Shown piece after piece: positions 31,708-56,079 of a DNA stretch of 64,000 nt. The notes beneath the pieces were generated by a model. It worked only from the letters and a program-made list of their open reading frames with translations. It made no database searches and was not told the DNA's origin. The stretch is from a candidate division FCPU426 bacterium. Its GTDB lineage: Bacteria; Oederibacteriota; Muellerivitia; Muellerivitales; Muellerivitaceae. The DNA lies in contig CAWKAR010000039.1 of the NCBI GenBank assembly GCA_963847625.1, positions 186,823 through 250,822 on the forward strand, in the 5' to 3' direction. The position numbers and the translations under genes are program-made. Position 1 is the stretch's first letter. The number at the start of each line of letters is the position of its first letter.

Positions 31708-32232
31708 TTATTTCCCCGTAGAATTTGCCAAAGCATCCTTCAGGAATTGGATCAGGGATTCCCGGCCCAGGTAGCCCACATGGACCTTGGAGTCATTATT
31801 CGGATATCGAACCACGAGTGTCGGGAATCCCCGGATTTGATACCGCGTTTGGAGTTCCGTGACTTCCGGCGGGTTCGTCTTCGTTTCCCGCCTGCGGTCC
31901 ATCACCGTGACCAGGATGAAGGATTGGCCGATCCAATCAGCCTGGGCCTTGTCGTCAAACACTTCGGCTTTCATTTTCTTGCAGTAGCCGCACCACTCGG
32001 CCGTGAAATCGTAAAGGATGGGTTTTTGCCCCTTTTGAAATTCTTCTTCGCCGTCCTGGATCGACATCCACTGGCCGGCCCGATTTGATAGGGTTTTATC
32101 CTTTGATATGGGATTGTCCTTATGAAAAAATTGGAAGGTTTCCCAAACCGCCAACAATATAAAAATGAGTACGGCCATTTTTGCAAAAAGCACCCAAAGC
32201 GGCACGGATTTGGTTTCATTTACAGGTATCAA
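31708..32232 (-). CDS. Membrane-anchored thioredoxin-family protein
   Basis: TM, WCGYC, GFPT; paralog of 24102..24620. Confidence 0.85.
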   Translation of the reverse strand: MIPVNETKSVPLWVLFAKMAVLIFILLAVWETFQFFHKDNPISKDKTLSNRAGQWMSIQDGEEEFQKGQKPILYDFTAEWCGYCKKMKAEVFDDKAQADWIGQSFILVTVMDRRRETKTNPPEVTELQTRYQIRGFPTLVVRYPNNDSKVHVGYLGRESLIQFLKDALANSTGK

Positions 32233-32390
32233 TGACTTTCCTTTATGAATGATATTGAAGGAAAAGAATAAGGTGACACATCCATTTTACCTGGGAAATT
32301 TCGTGATAGGTTGAAATTGGGGTGGGAAAAACGAGTATTATCTATAAAATCGCCTATTCATTATCAGAGATTCTAAAGTTTGAAAGGCGT

Positions 32391-32768
32391 AAAGCAAAAC
32401 CATATATTAGCCACATGCCAATCTTCCATGAAGCTTATAAAGAGATTGGTATCGCACCGATCTCCAATAATTTTTATGGATGATCGGCACGGATTCAGGG
32501 GATGTGCCGATTCACCCCTAAAACAGTTAAGGAAATCGGTACTATACCGAACTTTCATTGAAAGCTTTAATGAGGTTCGGCATGCATTTAGATAGGCCAA
32601 AACATTCATGAAAACTTCTTGAATGAATTTTAAATCCTCAATTTTAAATTTTTTTTAAGCAAATCCCATGAATCCCATGCATGGCAGCCTTCTACGAAGC
32701 TTTTATTAAAGCTGGTATAATAGCGATTTCATTAACTGTATTATTGTGAATCGGCACATCTGTGGCTA
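32391..32768. repeat. Cluster of three copies of a double-hairpin element (A 32415-32490 +, B 32504-32583 -, C 32681-32757 +)
   Basis: Each reads ATG(C/G)C-N11-AAGCTT-N11-13-GGTAT, then a second hairpin (consensus GYACCGAT...ATCGGCAC); fourth copy at 48999-49082. Confidence 0.8.
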
Positions 32769-32817
32769 GAGATTATTTTGATAAGATGTGTTTTCGAATA
32801 AATTTAAAAAGGATCGT

Positions 32818-34011
32818 ATGATTTATTTCGACCACGCCGCCACCACCCCCTTGGACGAACAAGTCCTGGAAGCCATGATGCCTTTCCTGAAAGAGGAATA
32901 TGGTAATCCTTCCAGCTTGCACGCCTCCGGGCGGGCCGCGCGGGCTGCGGTGGAACATTCCCGCGAAAAGATCGCCCTCACGTTGAATTCCGACCCGAAA
33001 GAAATCGTCTTTACCAGCGGCGGCACGGAAGCCGTGAATGCCGTCCTTAAAGGAATGGCTTTCGTCAACCAGGGGAAGGCCCGGCATTTCATCATTTCCG
33101 CGGTGGAGCACCATTGCGTGCTGGATTGCACGGAATGGCTGACCCGCCAGGGATGCTCCGTCACCGCCGTGGGCGTTGACTCCGAGGGCCAGGTCGATCC
33201 CAAAGAGGTGGAAAAGGCCATCCGGCCGGGCGAAACAACGTTGATCTCCATCATGGCGGCCAACAACGAAGTGGGCACGATCCAGCCTTTCGGGGAGATC
33301 GGGGCCCTGGCCAAGGGGCATGGGATTCCCTTCCATACCGACGCGGTACAGGCTTACGGCAAGGTTCCCATCGACGTGCAACGGGATCACATCGATTTTC
33401 TTTCGGCTTCGGGCCACAAGATATACGGACCCAAGGGTTGCGGTTTCTTTTACCAAAGAAGGGGGATGGACCTGGTCCCGCTCCAGCATGGGGGCGGGCA
33501 GGAGAGAAACCGGCGGGGAGGCACCGAAAACGCGGCTGGGATCGTGGGCCTGGGGGAAGCGGCCAGGCGGATCTGCCTTGAGATGCCGAGGCATGGGCGC
33601 TTAAGGGCGCTGGCGCAAATCCTCCTGGATGAAATGAAAAAAGCGTATCCCGAGGTGAGGGTCAACGGGCCATTGGATCCCGAAAAAAGGGTCCCGGGAA
33701 TCCTGAACATCACCCTGCCCGGCATCGAGGGGGAGACCCTCGTCCATAGCCTGGACAACCGGGGTTTCGCTGTTTCCTCGGGGGCCGCCTGTGCGGCCGG
33801 ATCGGCGATACCTTCCCATGTCCTATCGGCCATGGGCCGGAGCCCGAAAGAAACCAAGGAGGGCCTTCGTTTTTCCTTCGGCCGGTCCAATACCGGGGAA
33901 CAGGTTCAGGAACTGTTGGGGACCCTGCCCTCCGTCATTCAAAGCCTTCAAATGATGTCTTCCTTCCTGGAGGAGGGTGAACCCAAATCAGAAACCCCCA
34001 AGCCCCGCTAA
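32818..34011 (+). CDS. iscS: Cysteine desulfurase (IscS/NifS family)
   Basis: YFDHAATTP, GNPSSLH, FTSGGTE, HTDAVQA, SGHKIYGPKG, SSGAAC. Confidence 0.92.
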   Translation: MIYFDHAATTPLDEQVLEAMMPFLKEEYGNPSSLHASGRAARAAVEHSREKIALTLNSDPKEIVFTSGGTEAVNAVLKGMAFVNQGKARHFIISAVEHHCVLDCTEWLTRQGCSVTAVGVDSEGQVDPKEVEKAIRPGETTLISIMAANNEVGTIQPFGEIGALAKGHGIPFHTDAVQAYGKVPIDVQRDHIDFLSASGHKIYGPKGCGFFYQRRGMDLVPLQHGGGQERNRRGGTENAAGIVGLGEAARRICLEMPRHGRLRALAQILLDEMKKAYPEVRVNGPLDPEKRVPGILNITLPGIEGETLVHSLDNRGFAVSSGAACAAGSAIPSHVLSAMGRSPKETKEGLRFSFGRSNTGEQVQELLGTLPSVIQSLQMMSSFLEEGEPKSETPKPR

Positions 34012-40688: not shown

Positions 40689-41063
40689 GAAATAACGATT
40701 TTTGGCCAGTTTTGGCGAAATCGGAGCTAAAAAACCAAGTTTAGCCATGATTTTTAGTGCCGTTGGAAATGATAATTAGTCCAGTTTTGGGGGAGATTCC
40801 AGCTGTACTAGCCTTCATCAGGCAAGAAAAAAGGAATAAAGCCGGGATTTGACGTTTGTTTCGATGAAAATACTGTCAGCCCAGTTTTCCCTAACACAGC
40901 CAAGAAGATTGGATGGAAGCCTTGAGAGTTTTGTTCCGCAACTGCCGGCAATATCTTTCGACCTTTTCCATTAACAACCAACAACACCCTAGCCACGCCC
41001 GCTGATGTTAAGGCCCATTAACATCAGGTGGAAATTTTTGGGCCATTTTTAGAAGGAGGATGC

Positions 41064-43844
<2,781 letters not shown>

Positions 43845-48959: not shown

Positions 48960-48970
48960 CGGTATGGATA

Positions 48971-49109
48971 AAAGCAAAACCATGTCTTAGCCACGGATGT
49001 GCCGATTTTCATAAATGAAATAATGTTTAATTGAAATCGGTACGATACCAGCCTCATTAAAAGCTTCATTGATGGCTGGCATGCAGGGGATTCATGGGAT
49101 TGGCTTAAA
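48971..49109 (-). repeat. Fourth copy (D) of the double-hairpin element with flanks
   Basis: Reverse complement aligns to 32654-32768 over ~115 nt. Confidence 0.8.
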
Positions 49110-49194
49110 TTCCTACAAATAGGGGCCTATCGATAACCCATTTTCCTGGAGGAATGGCTGGATAACCTGGTAAACGGGGCTGGGAACTCGGGAA

Positions 49195-49272
49195 CGGGTT
49201 CGACGAGGGCTTCGACTGAGGGCCTCGACTGAGCTCGGCCGAAGTCCTCAGCCGAATGTTCTCACCGCAGGC
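49195..49272. repeat. Nested REP-like palindrome
   Basis: GGTTCGAC..[TTCGACTGAGG..[CTCGACTGAG/CTCGGCCGAAG]..CCTCAGCCGAA]..CTCACCGCAGGC; related element at 52933. Confidence 0.55.
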
Positions 49273-49513
49273 TGGCCGATAACCCGGGAACCCGAGAACT
49301 GGCCGATAACCCGAGAACTAGCCGATAACCCGATAACCCGAGAACTGGCCGATAACCCGATAACCCGGGAACTGGCCGAGAACCAAGGAATTCGAAAACC
49401 CAGGAACCCGAGAACTGGCCGAGAACCAAGGAATTCGAGAACGCAGGAACCCAGGAACTGCCCGAGAACCAGCCAATAACCCGAGAACTAGTCGAGAACC
49501 TAGTAAACGGGGC
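49272..49513 (+). repeat. Degenerate short tandem array of CCGA(G/T)AAC / GGAAC units
   Basis: Many 8-11 nt units such as GAGAACTGGCCGATAACCC. Confidence 0.85.
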
Positions 49514-49574
49514 CGGTAACACCTACCGCATCAACGTGCCGCCTACCGGCATGGGAGGATAACCCGCCCACATC

Positions 49575-49998
49575 CCTGCCCGCATTTCCTAGATCTCCTG
49601 CCCGCAGGTGCCGGTAGTCCTGCCCGCAGGGTCGAGTGCCCTGCCCGCAGAAGTCGGTAGTCCTGCCCGCAGAAACCCACCGGGTGCCCTGCCCGCAGGT
49701 CCGGAAACCCTGCCCGCAGGTCCGGAAACCCTGCCCGCAGAAGCCGGTAGTCCTGCCCGCAGGTGCCGGAATCCCTGCCCGCAGGTCCGGAATCCCTGCC
49801 CGCAGAAACCGGGTGCCCTGCCCGCAGGTCCGGAAACCCTGCCCGCAGAAGCCGGTAGTCCTGCCCGCAGGTTTCCAGGGTCCTGCCCGCAGGTCCCTGA
49901 GCCCTGCCCGCAGGGTCGAGTGCCCTGCCCGCAGAAGTCGGTAGTCCTGCCCGCAGAGGCCGGTAGTCCTGCCCACAGGAGCTGGTGCCCTGCCCGCA
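49575..49998 (+). repeat. 20-unit CCTGCCCGCAG array with 10-15 nt variable linkers
   Basis: Core counted 20 times; period mostly 21-22 nt. Confidence 0.92.
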
Positions 49999-50185
49999 TG
50001 GGTGTTTCCATCTGTCGAATAGGCGGTCTACCTGTCGGAATGGACTGGCGAACCTGTCGGAAAGGCGGTTCTGCCTATTCGGCAGCCACTCACCGCAATG
50101 AAAGAAGGGGCAAAAAATAAAAGGGTTTTCGACAGTCGGATTTCTTGGTGTAAGGGGCTTGGCCAATAATCGGCGCGAAGTCTAA

Positions 50186-53089: not shown

Positions 53090-54619
53090 GTGAATAAAAT
53101 CACAAACAAAATGGATGGCTGTCAAACCTATCGGACGACCGGGGCGGTTCAAATCATCAGCCTCGTCTTCCTATCCCTTTTCGTCCTCATCTCCCGCCAA
53201 TCCTGGGCGGCCGGCGACCTCCTCCAGAAGTCCCTGGTCAAGATTTTCACGACCGTGCAGGAGCCGAACTACTACGAGCCCTGGCGGATCGGTTCCTCCC
53301 AATTCGTCAGCGGAAGCGGCTGCGTCATGCCCGGGCACCGGATCCTCACCAACGCGCACGTGGTTTCCAACGCGATATTCATCGAGGTGCTCAAGGAAGG
53401 GGACAGCCGCAAATACATCGCCAAAAGGGAATTCGTCGCCCATGACTGCGACCTGGCCATCCTCAAGGTGATCGACGAGGATTTCTTCAAGGGCACCCTG
53501 CCGGTCACGTTCGGAAGCATGCCGTTCAAGAGGGACAAAGTCGCGGTTTACGGGTTCCCCTTGGGCGGGGAGGAGCTGTCCATCACCGAGGGCGTGGTTT
53601 CCAGGATCGAGATATCCACTTACGCCCATTCCGGCAGGTACATCTTGGACGTCCAGACGGACGCGGCCATCAATCCGGGCAACAGCGGGGGGCCGGTTTT
53701 CAAGGACAAGAAAATGGTGGGGGTGGCTTTCCAGGGTTACAACGCGGTGGTGGCCCAGAACACCGGCTTTTTCGTCCCCGTCCCGATCATCAAGAGGTTC
53801 CTCGACGAGGTTAAAAACGGCGCCTACCGCGGCATCCCGGCGCTGGGGATCTACGGCGAGGACATGGAGAACGACACCCTCAGGGCCTATTACGGGATGA
53901 AGCCGGACCAGACGGGGATCCTGGTCACCCAGGTCATCTACCATTCCTCGGCATGGGACAAGCTCAAAGAAAACGACGTGCTGTTGTCCATCGACGGTTA
54001 TCCCGTCGCCAACGACGGGACCATTTCCTTCCGGAAAGGGGAGAGGATCCATTTCTCGTACCCCCTCTGCCTGCGCCATATCGGGGACAAAATGAAACTA
54101 AAAATCCTGCGGGACAAGAAGATCCGGGAAATCACGGTCACCTTAAAAGCGGAGTCCCGCCTGGTCCCCCTCGTCCAATACGACACCCAGCCGGCTTATT
54201 TCATTTTCGACGGTTTCATCTTCACGCCATTCAACTCGAACTATCCCGGCATCAGCAAGGACACCCCCCCGGAATTGAAGGCCCTTTATTTCCACGGCCT
54301 TCCCTCAGAAAACCGCAAACAGGTTATCCTGGTCAACCACATCCTTTCCAACGCCATCAACAAGGGTTACGACTCGAAGTTCAGCAACCTCATCGTCACC
54401 CAGGTGAACGGCCACAACATCTCGGAAATGAAGGATTTGATCGCGGCCTTCGCGGACCCCCAGGACGGCCGCCATGTCATCGAGATCGACAAGCCCAGGG
54501 AAGTGGGGACCCAGATCATCCTCGACGCGGCCAAGTCCAAGCAGGCTTCGGCGGATATTTTGGACCAATACGACATCCCCAGCGACCGCTCGGCCGACCT
54601 GAAGGGAGGAAGCGAATGA
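53090..54619 (+). CDS. Deg/HtrA-type serine protease with PDZ domains (plant Deg2/9-like architecture)
   Basis: TNAHV, CDLA, AAINPGNSGGP triad; signal peptide. Confidence 0.9.
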   Translation: MNKITNKMDGCQTYRTTGAVQIISLVFLSLFVLISRQSWAAGDLLQKSLVKIFTTVQEPNYYEPWRIGSSQFVSGSGCVMPGHRILTNAHVVSNAIFIEVLKEGDSRKYIAKREFVAHDCDLAILKVIDEDFFKGTLPVTFGSMPFKRDKVAVYGFPLGGEELSITEGVVSRIEISTYAHSGRYILDVQTDAAINPGNSGGPVFKDKKMVGVAFQGYNAVVAQNTGFFVPVPIIKRFLDEVKNGAYRGIPALGIYGEDMENDTLRAYYGMKPDQTGILVTQVIYHSSAWDKLKENDVLLSIDGYPVANDGTISFRKGERIHFSYPLCLRHIGDKMKLKILRDKKIREITVTLKAESRLVPLVQYDTQPAYFIFDGFIFTPFNSNYPGISKDTPPELKALYFHGLPSENRKQVILVNHILSNAINKGYDSKFSNLIVTQVNGHNISEMKDLIAAFADPQDGRHVIEIDKPREVGTQIILDAAKSKQASADILDQYDIPSDRSADLKGGSE

Positions 54620-56079
54620 GGACCGCTTTTTCCGGTTTGAGGGTCACCGCGGTTTTATGCCTGGGATTTTTCCTTTGCGCCCGGGTTTGGGGCGGCGACG
54701 AGACGACGAGAAAATCCGTAGTCAAGGTGTACACCACGGCCCAAACCATCGACTATTACGAGCCCTGGAAACCCGGGTCGGAGGTCCAGTTGAGGGGGTG
54801 CGGCACCATCCTGCCGGGGAAGCGCATCCTCACCACGGCCCACCTGGTCAACAAGGGGAATTACATCGAGGTCGAAAAGTTCGGCCAAACCAAGCGGTAC
54901 GTGGCCCAAGTGGAGCAGGTCGGGTTCGATTTGGACCTGGCCCTGTTGAGCGTGCAGGACGAGGACTTCTTCACCGACACCAAACCCGCGGAGTACGGAG
55001 ACCTGCCGGGGCGGGGCGACAAGCTCGTAATCCAGGGCGGGGATGAGTTGTCGATCAAGGAAGACTCGGTATCCGGCATGGAAATGGTCTGGAGCACCGA
55101 GGGCGGCCGTTCCGTGCCCGCTATCCTGACCAACGCCGCCATCGACGCGGCCAACAACGGGTGCCCGGTGTTCAGCGGCGGAAAATTCATCGGCATTCCC
55201 TTCGACTCCACGGGAAAGCCGGAAAAATCCGGGTCCGTCATTCCCGTGAACGTGATCCAGAGGTTTTTCAAGGGCATCCAGGGCGGGCGCGCTTACGACG
55301 GCTTCCCCGACCTGGGTTTTTACACCCAGGACCTGGAAAACCCGTCCCTTCGGGACTATTTCAAGATTTCCCCCAAGCAATCAGGGGAAATCATCACCAG
55401 GATTTTTTACGGGGGGTCGGCCGACGGGGTGCTGAAGGAAGGCGACGTTTTGACGGCCATCGACGGGCATCCGGTCGACGACGAGGGCTACATCAACCTG
55501 AGAAAAACGGGGAGAATCCCCGAGATTTACCTCGCGACCTTTTACTCCATCGGGGAGGAAATCAGCCTGGATATCCTCAGGGACGGGAAAGCTTTGAAAG
55601 TGAGGATGCCCATGAAGGCCGTATCGAAGTTGATACCCGACCGGCAGGATGACCGGCATCCCACCTATTACATGCTGGCCGGGCTGGTTTTCGTCCCCCT
55701 GACCGTCAACTATTTCTCGACGGCCAATTGGGAGGCCTTCAAGCCTGAATTGCAGGACCTGTTTGTCCACGGGCTTCTCTCGGAAGAACAAAAGCAGGTC
55801 GTCCTCATGAGCCACGTCCTGCCGCATGAAATCAACAAGGGATACGATAAGCTGACCAATGTCATCGTTAAAAAAGTCAACGGCCATCCCATCGCGGAAA
55901 TGAAGGACCTGTTGGAAGCCTTGAAAACCCCCTCCGGGCGCTATCACGTGGTGGAGGTCGACGATTTCAACTGGTCCGGCTCGAGGATCATTATTGACGC
56001 GGAAAAAGAAAAACAAGCCACCGGGGAAATCATGGACACATTTAAAATTCTTTCCGACCGTTCGCAGGATTTGAAATAA
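54616..56079 (+). CDS. Deg-protease paralog lacking catalytic Ser
   Basis: ATGA-coupled start at 54616 after GGAGG; TTAHL and LDLA kept, GNSGGP replaced by ANNGCP. Confidence 0.85.
   Translation: MRTAFSGLRVTAVLCLGFFLCARVWGGDETTRKSVVKVYTTAQTIDYYEPWKPGSEVQLRGCGTILPGKRILTTAHLVNKGNYIEVEKFGQTKRYVAQVEQVGFDLDLALLSVQDEDFFTDTKPAEYGDLPGRGDKLVIQGGDELSIKEDSVSGMEMVWSTEGGRSVPAILTNAAIDAANNGCPVFSGGKFIGIPFDSTGKPEKSGSVIPVNVIQRFFKGIQGGRAYDGFPDLGFYTQDLENPSLRDYFKISPKQSGEIITRIFYGGSADGVLKEGDVLTAIDGHPVDDEGYINLRKTGRIPEIYLATFYSIGEEISLDILRDGKALKVRMPMKAVSKLIPDRQDDRHPTYYMLAGLVFVPLTVNYFSTANWEAFKPELQDLFVHGLLSEEQKQVVLMSHVLPHEINKGYDKLTNVIVKKVNGHPIAEMKDLLEALKTPSGRYHVVEVDDFNWSGSRIIIDAEKEKQATGEIMDTFKILSDRSQDLK

Follow-up and report, generated by a model that had tools for sequence, protein, structure and literature searches.

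The window, i.e. the whole 64,000-nucleotide stretch of DNA analyzed here, carries four copies (A to D) of a non-coding element of approximately 77 nt that consists of two tail-to-tail hairpins and sits precisely within a two-base pyrimidine-purine (YR) core, mostly CA. All four are in AT-rich non-coding DNA: a thioredoxin-like gene and a divergent class-V aminotransferase gene flank the stretch that holds A, B and C, and D is located upstream of a gene that has no Pfam match (Table 1). A and B are 13 bp apart inside one host repeat. A covariance model search of the window returned A to D as the only matches, and the element was absent from the orthologous iscS loci of five out of five relatives. 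The coordinates and strands given in an earlier note on this DNA proved accurate for all four copies, as did the lengths of hairpin 1 (38, 40, 38 and 38 nt in A, B, C and D), its stems, the ATGGC of copy C and the RTGCC...GGCAY inverted ends. In hairpin 1 of B, the right arm is N13 and not the N11 described.

Table 1. Features discussed in the text; positions are those of the window unless a genome and contig or a locus is named.
Feature	Position	Strand	Remarks
Element copy A	32415..32490	+	76 nt; left junction CA, right junction CG (hybrid); hairpin 1 (38 nt), hinge of 1 nt, hairpin 2
Element copy B	32504..32583	-	80 nt; both junctions CA; orientation opposite to A
Element copy C	32681..32757	+	77 nt; both junctions CA; most decayed copy
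Element copy D	48999..49082	-	84 nt; both junctions CA; hairpin 2 loop longer
Central triplet of A (TCG)	32452..32454	+	candidate guide
Central triplet of B (TAG)	32542..32544	-	
Central triplet of C (TAA)	32718..32720	+	
Central triplet of D (TCG)	49043..49045	-	
Host repeat split by A and B	32381..32620	+	limits approximate
Second host repeat, same class, split by C	32660..32775	-	inverted relative to the first; limits approximate
Host repeat, same class, split by D	48965..49110	+	limits approximate
Thioredoxin-like gene, left neighbor	31708..32232	-	context
Class-V aminotransferase (IscS-like) gene, right neighbor	32788..34011	+	context
Gene for ~110-aa Y1-fold protein	G000:C31:8482-8823; L385:1489-1830	+	orthologues L365-L394

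Results

Copy number and taxonomic range

Searched against the 4.43-Mb genome (G000), a hidden Markov model (HMM) built from the four copies gave 140 non-overlapping matches at E≤1e-3; after local shuffling of the genome there were none, even at E<1. The refined model recovered 121 full-length copies, and the four copies of the window are thus only a small part of the family. Single hairpins are rare among the partial matches. A strict sequence pattern was present in 19 of 30 genomes of the same family versus 0 of 30 others. Of the 30 loci listed by a genome-wide pattern scan, 9 lacked good support from the HMM and were discarded as chance. With a covariance model derived from 40 copies the element was detected in 28/30 genomes of the family and, weakly, in 1/68 other genomes of the phylum, and the viral contigs, plasmids and phages searched contained no match.

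The copies in G000 are diverged, with a median nearest-neighbor identity of 89%, and near-identical copies have at least one flank in common. Grouped by flanks, the 121 copies form 58 clusters, 12 of which have several members and together hold 63 copies. Since near-identical copies share flanks, many of them have spread together with a host repeat, and nothing in this genome shows a recent independent hop or current activity. Their distribution is uneven: contig C3 has 27 matches, several contigs of 50-110 kb have none, and a cluster of copies is found where toxin-antitoxin pairs and AAA-ATPase genes are abundant (C3:20000-56000).

Hairpin structure and covariation

For 113 of the 121 copies the element could be divided at its center, and 106 distinct ones were used for pair statistics. 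In both hairpins, a stem of nine pairs is followed by one unpaired, variable base at arm position 10, by two further pairs and by a small internal loop, and the top is AT-rich. Positions 6-8 of hairpin 1 are Watson-Crick paired in 99-101 of the 106 copies where 52-54 would be expected (mutual information, MI, 0.78-0.89), and position 9 of hairpin 2 is paired in 96 against 52 expected. No covariation links the two ends of the element in the same 106 copies (MI ≤0.13). In the 40-copy alignment, two-sided changes occur at 13 of 22 pairs, a number that none of 500 shuffles reached, although the shuffles ignore phylogeny; control structures slid along the same alignment are at most 42% paired, versus 90% for the real one.

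The stem covariation reported from four copies is hence borne out. The further step taken at that time, from compensatory change to selection on structure, does not follow from covariation alone; hairpin-templated repair can also yield compensatory stem changes. In this element, the compensatory changes come together with the signatures of insertion described below. The AAGCTT center, described as invariant, is found in just 41 of the 121 full-length copies (41 of the 140 HMM matches), and in the predicted RNA fold the hexamer is wholly unpaired in only 17 of these 41.

A conserved G·T wobble occupies stem position 3; hairpin 1 has it on the top strand (99/106), hairpin 2 on the bottom strand (97/106). 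Owing to these opposite-strand wobbles neither strand folds better than the other; the element has two-fold symmetry, and each strand opens with an equivalent hairpin, which fits DNA better than a single strand of RNA. When folded as circular DNA, the top strands of B and D are predicted to form a dumbbell, and the top strand of A, alone among the window copies, is predicted to fold end to end instead; copy C has the weakest predicted fold of the four. No Rfam family matched at its gathering score (best E 0.74), in agreement with the earlier view that the element belongs to no known family there. The same note had offered a structured RNA with AAGCUU kissing loops as one option, and this is not supported, given how few copies carry the hexamer, how seldom it is unpaired and how evenly the wobbles are shared between the strands.

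Junctions, empty sites and host repeats

Identical dinucleotides border the element at both junctions in 109 of the 121 copies, against 87 expected (CA in 96, CG in 9 and TA in 4). When the two flanks were joined with a single core, the resulting 16-mer occurred exactly elsewhere in the genome for 53/121 copies, compared with 0-1 in seven shifted registers. Counted by flank cluster, exact empty sites were found for 17 of 58 (nine without tandem junctions), again with 0-1 in shifted registers. As a background, 8.4% of 63,237 non-coding CA/TG sites have a second exact copy, so that a preference for repeats is evident when copies are counted and modest when clusters are. Each of the four window copies has an exact empty site elsewhere, with the 16-mer present 19, 14, 5 and 7 times for A, B, C and D, respectively. 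After removal of A and B, the host repeat matches uninterrupted copies on other contigs with 90-98% identity over 43-71 nt. Removal restores one host repeat, and the inverted A-B pair is therefore two insertions and not one structure.

In the reading that places hairpin 1 first, a TG/TG core was seen in 0 of 121 copies, and consequently the orientation of the element relative to its core is fixed. TG/TG cores with a C-n-A triplet, considered as a fourth class, turned out to be ordinary copies read backwards and were not counted. Neither a target consensus nor a bridge-like complementarity between arms and flanks was found outside the core in 137 flank contexts. Individual insertions illustrate the precision. 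In G023 the element has entered a plain CA between overlapping stop and start codons, and G001 has eight identical copies head to tail with a single CA between the units. In four contig sets over the window locus, which are short, low-depth pieces, we saw no clean excision or circle, and one joint in these sets is a hybrid of two copies. Separately, two decayed tandem copies start at the 3' end of a tRNA-Leu gene with an adjoining integrase gene (G000:C3:95364-95616); the first of them has CG/CG junctions and a CAG triplet.

The host repeats of the window belong to a motif class (GCCAC-R-GAT) that is among several kinds of repeat surrounding GxxExxY (PF13366) genes. Motifs from these classes of host repeat are present at 21 of 30 GxxExxY loci versus 60 of 500 random windows, and a copy of the element in 2 of the 30. 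The direct-repeat motifs around these genes (L288-L317), of the CACAGAG, CACCAAG and CAC-R-GAT types, are arranged mostly as inverted pairs (21/30 loci); such motifs also occur away from GxxExxY genes, one of them 89 times in G000. The short repeats associated with GxxExxY, including those at 32381-32775 and 48965-49110 of the window, may be mobile themselves.

The central triplet

Between the two hairpins lies a Y-n-R triplet whose outer bases close both stems and whose complement corresponds to the core. In copy A, for example, the outer bases of the triplet close both stems and are complementary to a CA core. The relation was counted in 273 distinct copies representing 137 flank contexts, from which nine chance loci were excluded and in which a few false calls remain. 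The triplet matched the core in 123 of the 137 contexts: T-n-G with CA/CA in 113, C-n-G with CG/CG in 6 and T-n-A with TA/TA in 4. The misses comprise T-n-A with CA/CA (3 contexts), T-n-G with CG/CG (1) and around ten contexts of hybrid or decayed classes; copy C of the window, which has TAA despite its CA/CA junctions, is one such miss. Among copies with hybrid ends, five contexts would fit a single-strand cut in the middle of the core (CA/CG 2, TA/CA 2 and CA/TA with T-n-A 1), but three contexts of T-n-G with CA/TA would not. The middle base of the triplet is free (A 164, C 61, T 35, G 13).

The 113 copies of G000 examined at their flanks include C-n-G copies, all eight of which have G as the first right-flank base, and T-n-A copies, four of seven with T as the last left-flank base. 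The triplet rule also holds in a subfamily whose hairpin 2 is different. At one homologous host-repeat site the junctions are TA/TA in G019 and G024, with a TTA/TAA triplet, and CA/CA with TTG in G028, from the same genus; three positions change together here, which makes the site a natural control. The result should nevertheless be interpreted with some caution, since the independent settings behind the alternative cores number about five for CG and two to three for TA, and the rule is accordingly well indicated but short of proven. On this comparison of sequences the central triplet is a candidate guide that would read the dinucleotide site by base-pairing.

Search for a mobilizing enzyme

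Genes for Y1 transposases are present in 22 of 31 family genomes, and the element was near none of the 31 Y1 loci. G000 has three such genes, encoding long HTH-fused proteins, with ends of the GGGGTCAG type that are unrelated to the element. They resemble the subclass 2.1 group, for which REP-like neighbors are reported to be absent (PMC6006769). Filtering the open reading frames of G000 for the HUH motif returned the same three Y1 genes and nothing further. The true RAYTs of G024 carry ordinary GTAG REPs, and the element occurred in 0/3 RAYT-like regions of G024 and G015, both of which are incomplete genomes.

Other candidates were set aside as well. The 14 IS110 matches in G000 have ends unlike those of the element, and the ends of IS30 and the other multicopy IS of this genome are likewise unrelated. 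IS607 TnpA above the cut-off was absent from 31/31 family genomes, and the five resolvase-family matches in G000 are all at least 3 kb from any copy. Tyrosine recombinases are unlinked; the lone integrase, close to two decayed copies, has a tRNA-Leu as its target, and these copies come after the end of the tRNA. Among genes recurring next to the element (138 loci plus 180 neighbors in this genome), no transposase family was found except IS30. A ParB-HTH-like family has seven members in G000 (C3:26082-27833, C45:1537-3384 and five more), of which six lie within 3 kb of the element, but just 4/30 of its loci had a hit of the element model and it occurs in 9/30 family genomes, and it was rejected as mobilizer. 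Proteins with this ParB-HTH-like N-terminus were seen only in family f1, and in the long members membrane helices are predicted and the end is weakly PDZ-like. We also noted an IS110 family that inserts into the GGGGTCAG terminal repeats of long Y1 (TIRYT-like) elements (L001:1112-1420), and at another locus (L003) an IS110 copy sits at either end of a long Y1 (TIRYT-like) element.

Of 30 family genomes, 29 have a single copy of a further Y1-fold gene, which in G000 adjoins a nicotinamidase-like gene; 68 other genomes gave three weak matches to this gene. Its predicted product of approximately 110 amino acids is modeled with a fold like the TnpA of ISDra2 and IS608 (pLDDT 84, TM 0.75, E 2e-7). 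In its sequence, P-[ND]-R-V-E replaces the HUH motif, the invariant tyrosine is missing and the protein stops before the catalytic helix. Sequence and model together indicate that it is apparently a dead, domesticated transposase. None of 30 loci has the element within 1.5 kb, and the gene is also present in two element-free genomes, for which reasons it is not the mobilizer; any link between this gene and the element would be speculation.

Discussion

Likeness to known systems

The features of the element recall several known systems without coinciding with any. As in REPINs and REPs, the unit is two inverted imperfect palindromes in more than 100 mostly intergenic copies (121 doublets here), with compensatory stem changes, a conserved stem mismatch and insertion into other palindromes; dimers of REPs spaced by 1-2 bp, and REPs lying within other palindromes, have been described (PMC3733652). 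Moreover, in one TnpA-REP a guide chooses the dinucleotide cleavage site, CT or CA (PMC8266576). The element differs from this group in having no GTAG/CGTC tag at its outer feet, where the flanks conserve just C|A, and in that its guide-like A-T-n-G is central and common to both hairpins. Its empty sites are symmetric around the 2-bp core, whereas REPIN excisions are described as asymmetric, with a 5' tail (PMC3116915, PMC3337134). Furthermore, it flanks no RAYT gene (0/31 Y1 loci), and its ends do not pair into one long hairpin, copy A alone folding in that manner.

With IS200/IS605 elements such as IS608 and ISDra2 (PMC5934647) the element shares two hairpins with an extrahelical base, a fixed orientation, a scarless donor site and a predicted single-stranded circle, and its triplet is a candidate counterpart of their hairpin-foot guide, which is complementary to the cleavage site. 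It differs from them in that its target is a dinucleotide at both junctions instead of a 4-5 nt motif on the left side, in that its hairpins abut via a 1-nt hinge, and in that no parent IS with the same ends was found. Without a GTAG/CGTC tag or a linked RAYT, and with a symmetric 2-bp core, the element falls outside the miniatures of both REPIN and IS200/IS605 type, although it would work like them.

The same dinucleotide at both ends and in the target, together with fixed orientation, is reminiscent of IS607 and IS110, the latter also in its preference for repeats. However, the element has no coding or bridge region and no extended target motif, its covariation is structure-based, and no matching enzyme was found in the family. 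Like Correia and RUP miniature inverted-repeat elements (MITEs; PMC3184786), it is short, non-coding and multicopy, with inverted ends and an apparent 2-bp duplication; but its ends are 4-5 bp and not invariant, its orientation is fixed to an asymmetric core, and an internal triplet tracks the target. Our literature search returned no account of the family or of a central guide shared by two hairpins, although supplementary repeat tables may list the family.

Integron attC sites, also considered, end in RYYYAAC and GTTRRRY, with one site per gene cassette. The element, by comparison, has CA-TGCC...GGCA-CA ends and its sites interrupt other repeats in both orientations, which in ends and placement does not fit attC.

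A proposed mechanism

Taken together, we regard the element as mobile DNA of a REPIN- or MITE-like kind and favor, with a confidence that is evenly balanced, peel-and-paste transposition by an HUH enzyme over exchange by a 2-bp-core recombinase. The full proposal, to which we give about an even chance, is that of a non-autonomous DNA of approximately 77 nt, moved as a single strand and in trans by an HUH transposase (Y1, TnpA/RAYT-like) with the Y-n-R triplet as guide. A folded single-stranded substrate, the other option offered in the earlier note, gains support from the precise junctions, the empty sites, the tandem arrays and the guide-like triplet. In unwound DNA the two hairpins would stack end to end, so that the triplet faces the C|A junction on either side. 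With both of these junctions cut and the strands exchanged, a dumbbell-shaped circle of 77 nt would be released and the donor site resealed; the triplet would then read a new C|A (or C|G, or T|A), and there the circle would re-insert. Landing would often occur inside other small repeats, or at the element's own junction to give tandem arrays, and the later spread of many copies would be as passengers of host repeats. The cut position, the circle and the class of enzyme are deduced here by analogy with characterized systems.

Two such systems make the analogy concrete. The TnpA-REP of Marinomonas cleaves at CA through cross-complementarity with T2 and G4 of the GTAG guide, the third guide base being free, and changes of the guide redirect cleavage (PMC8266576). 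In IS608 a guide at the hairpin foot pairs with the target, and excision is circular with sealing of the donor (PMC5934647). In our element A-T-n-G stands at the 5' foot of hairpin 2 and C|A directly 3' of hairpin 2. The target of IS200/IS605 elements is 4-5 nt on one side, and the 2-bp core on both sides of our element is a point against the HUH reading. An element derived from IS200/IS605 would be expected to favor the lagging strand; relative to replication, 25 copies have one orientation and 24 the other, on contigs with weak GC skew.

Alternative explanations

Of the alternatives, the main one, which we consider unlikely, is that the same element is exchanged over its shared 2-bp core by a recombinase, either a serine enzyme as in IS607 or one of the IS110 type. 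The core would then have to match between circle junction and target, and the triplet would follow through selection for hairpin closure. The identical cores at both ends, the fixed orientation and the lack of a wider target consensus all agree with this, as in IS607, which is reported to exchange at GG with no other target motif (PMC6188088). IS110 elements, too, recombine at a core and are frequently inserted in REP repeats (PMC11208160; insertion at repeats also in 10.64898/2026.03.19.712850), and G000 has 14 matches to them. In addition, the predicted dumbbell, with an arm on either side of a 2-bp core, imitates a duplex site, and hybrid ends occur in both polarities. Against it, the IS110 ends seen here are unlike the element, and a single bridge RNA would give an extended target consensus, of which the 137 contexts have none; the family genomes have no IS607 TnpA above the cut-off, and the resolvases of G000 are distant from the copies. 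The covariation is within hairpins and not between ends, which points to a folded single strand.

An ordinary DDE MITE with TGCC/GGCA terminal repeats and a 2-bp target duplication, in which hairpin-templated repair later matches the triplet, appears improbable. Short inverted ends and a duplicated dinucleotide do fit the definition of a MITE (PMC3184786), and many DDE IS families are present, but a symmetric enzyme should give both orientations at CA, and none of the 121 copies has TG/TG. Unrepaired copies should also be encountered, and they are rarer than matched ones: T-n-G with TA/TA was found 0 times versus 11 copies of T-n-A, and T-n-G with CG/CG once versus 10 copies of C-n-G. Other mismatches persist in the element despite the supposed repair, no multicopy IS shares its ends, and these ends do not covary and differ in the subfamily. 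We likewise doubt that no dedicated enzyme was involved and that an old repeat was distributed by gene conversion or recombination between host repeats plus slippage, with host repair acting on the hairpins. Near-identical cores do share flanks, with more than half of the copies in multi-member clusters, and our searches linked no enzyme to the element; but 137 distinct flank contexts with base-exact boundaries call for a site-specific step. Such a step is also needed for the insertions at a tRNA 3' end and where stop and start codons overlap, and for tandem arrays of exact unit length that have just 2 bp in common. A structured non-coding RNA dimerizing through AAGCUU and kept by selection on the transcript seems very improbable. 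Strong stem covariation would suit it, and there is a mild bias toward co-directional genes (46 vs 26, of copies that are not independent). It is contradicted by the scarcity of the hexamer and the strand-symmetric wobbles, by precise insertion scars and the lack of a conserved locus (0/5 at iscS), by promoter-like sites at chance level and by the absence of an Rfam match.

A bolder version of the self-guided model, rather unlikely in our estimation, would see the element as a 77-nt dumbbell excised as a single-stranded circle, with one bulged triplet that both splints the junction and reads the target, with an enzyme outside the RAYT, TnpA and IS110 pairings and the dead Y1-fold protein as a hairpin-binding adaptor or repressor. 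Only jointly with that version, and with as little probability, would it be the smallest mobile element to carry its own target guide.

Significance

The dissemination of REPs has been termed poorly understood (PMC8266576), and PMC3116915 demonstrated excisions but considered its insertions unreliable. The present family offers base-exact filled and empty sites as well as natural variants in which triplet and target dinucleotide change together, and guide-directed insertion thereby becomes testable with 77-nt oligonucleotides. If true, it would constitute a minimal, reprogrammable DNA-guided insertion unit. These prospects are limited by an uncultured host, by few independent events for the alternative cores and by an enzyme search that was negative in the family genomes.

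Additional observations

Other small hairpin elements are nested in the arms of the element (G000:C40:94679-94941, C63:92911-93134, C38:58194 and C24:104080; L351:8996-9082), and the genome thus holds several nested families of tiny repeats. In a record titled Atopobium (L027:1390-1695), unrelated REP-like palindromes of approximately 38 nt, centered on GGATCC, form a mosaic together with two further units. Elsewhere in the window, a class II ribonucleotide reductase (41028-43844) and a trypsin-PDZ protease region (53090-56079) each appear as two open reading frames, which could reflect split genes, frameshifts or tandem paralogues, and short ACCC-R-AGAAC-like direct repeats form an array just past copy D (49200-50100).
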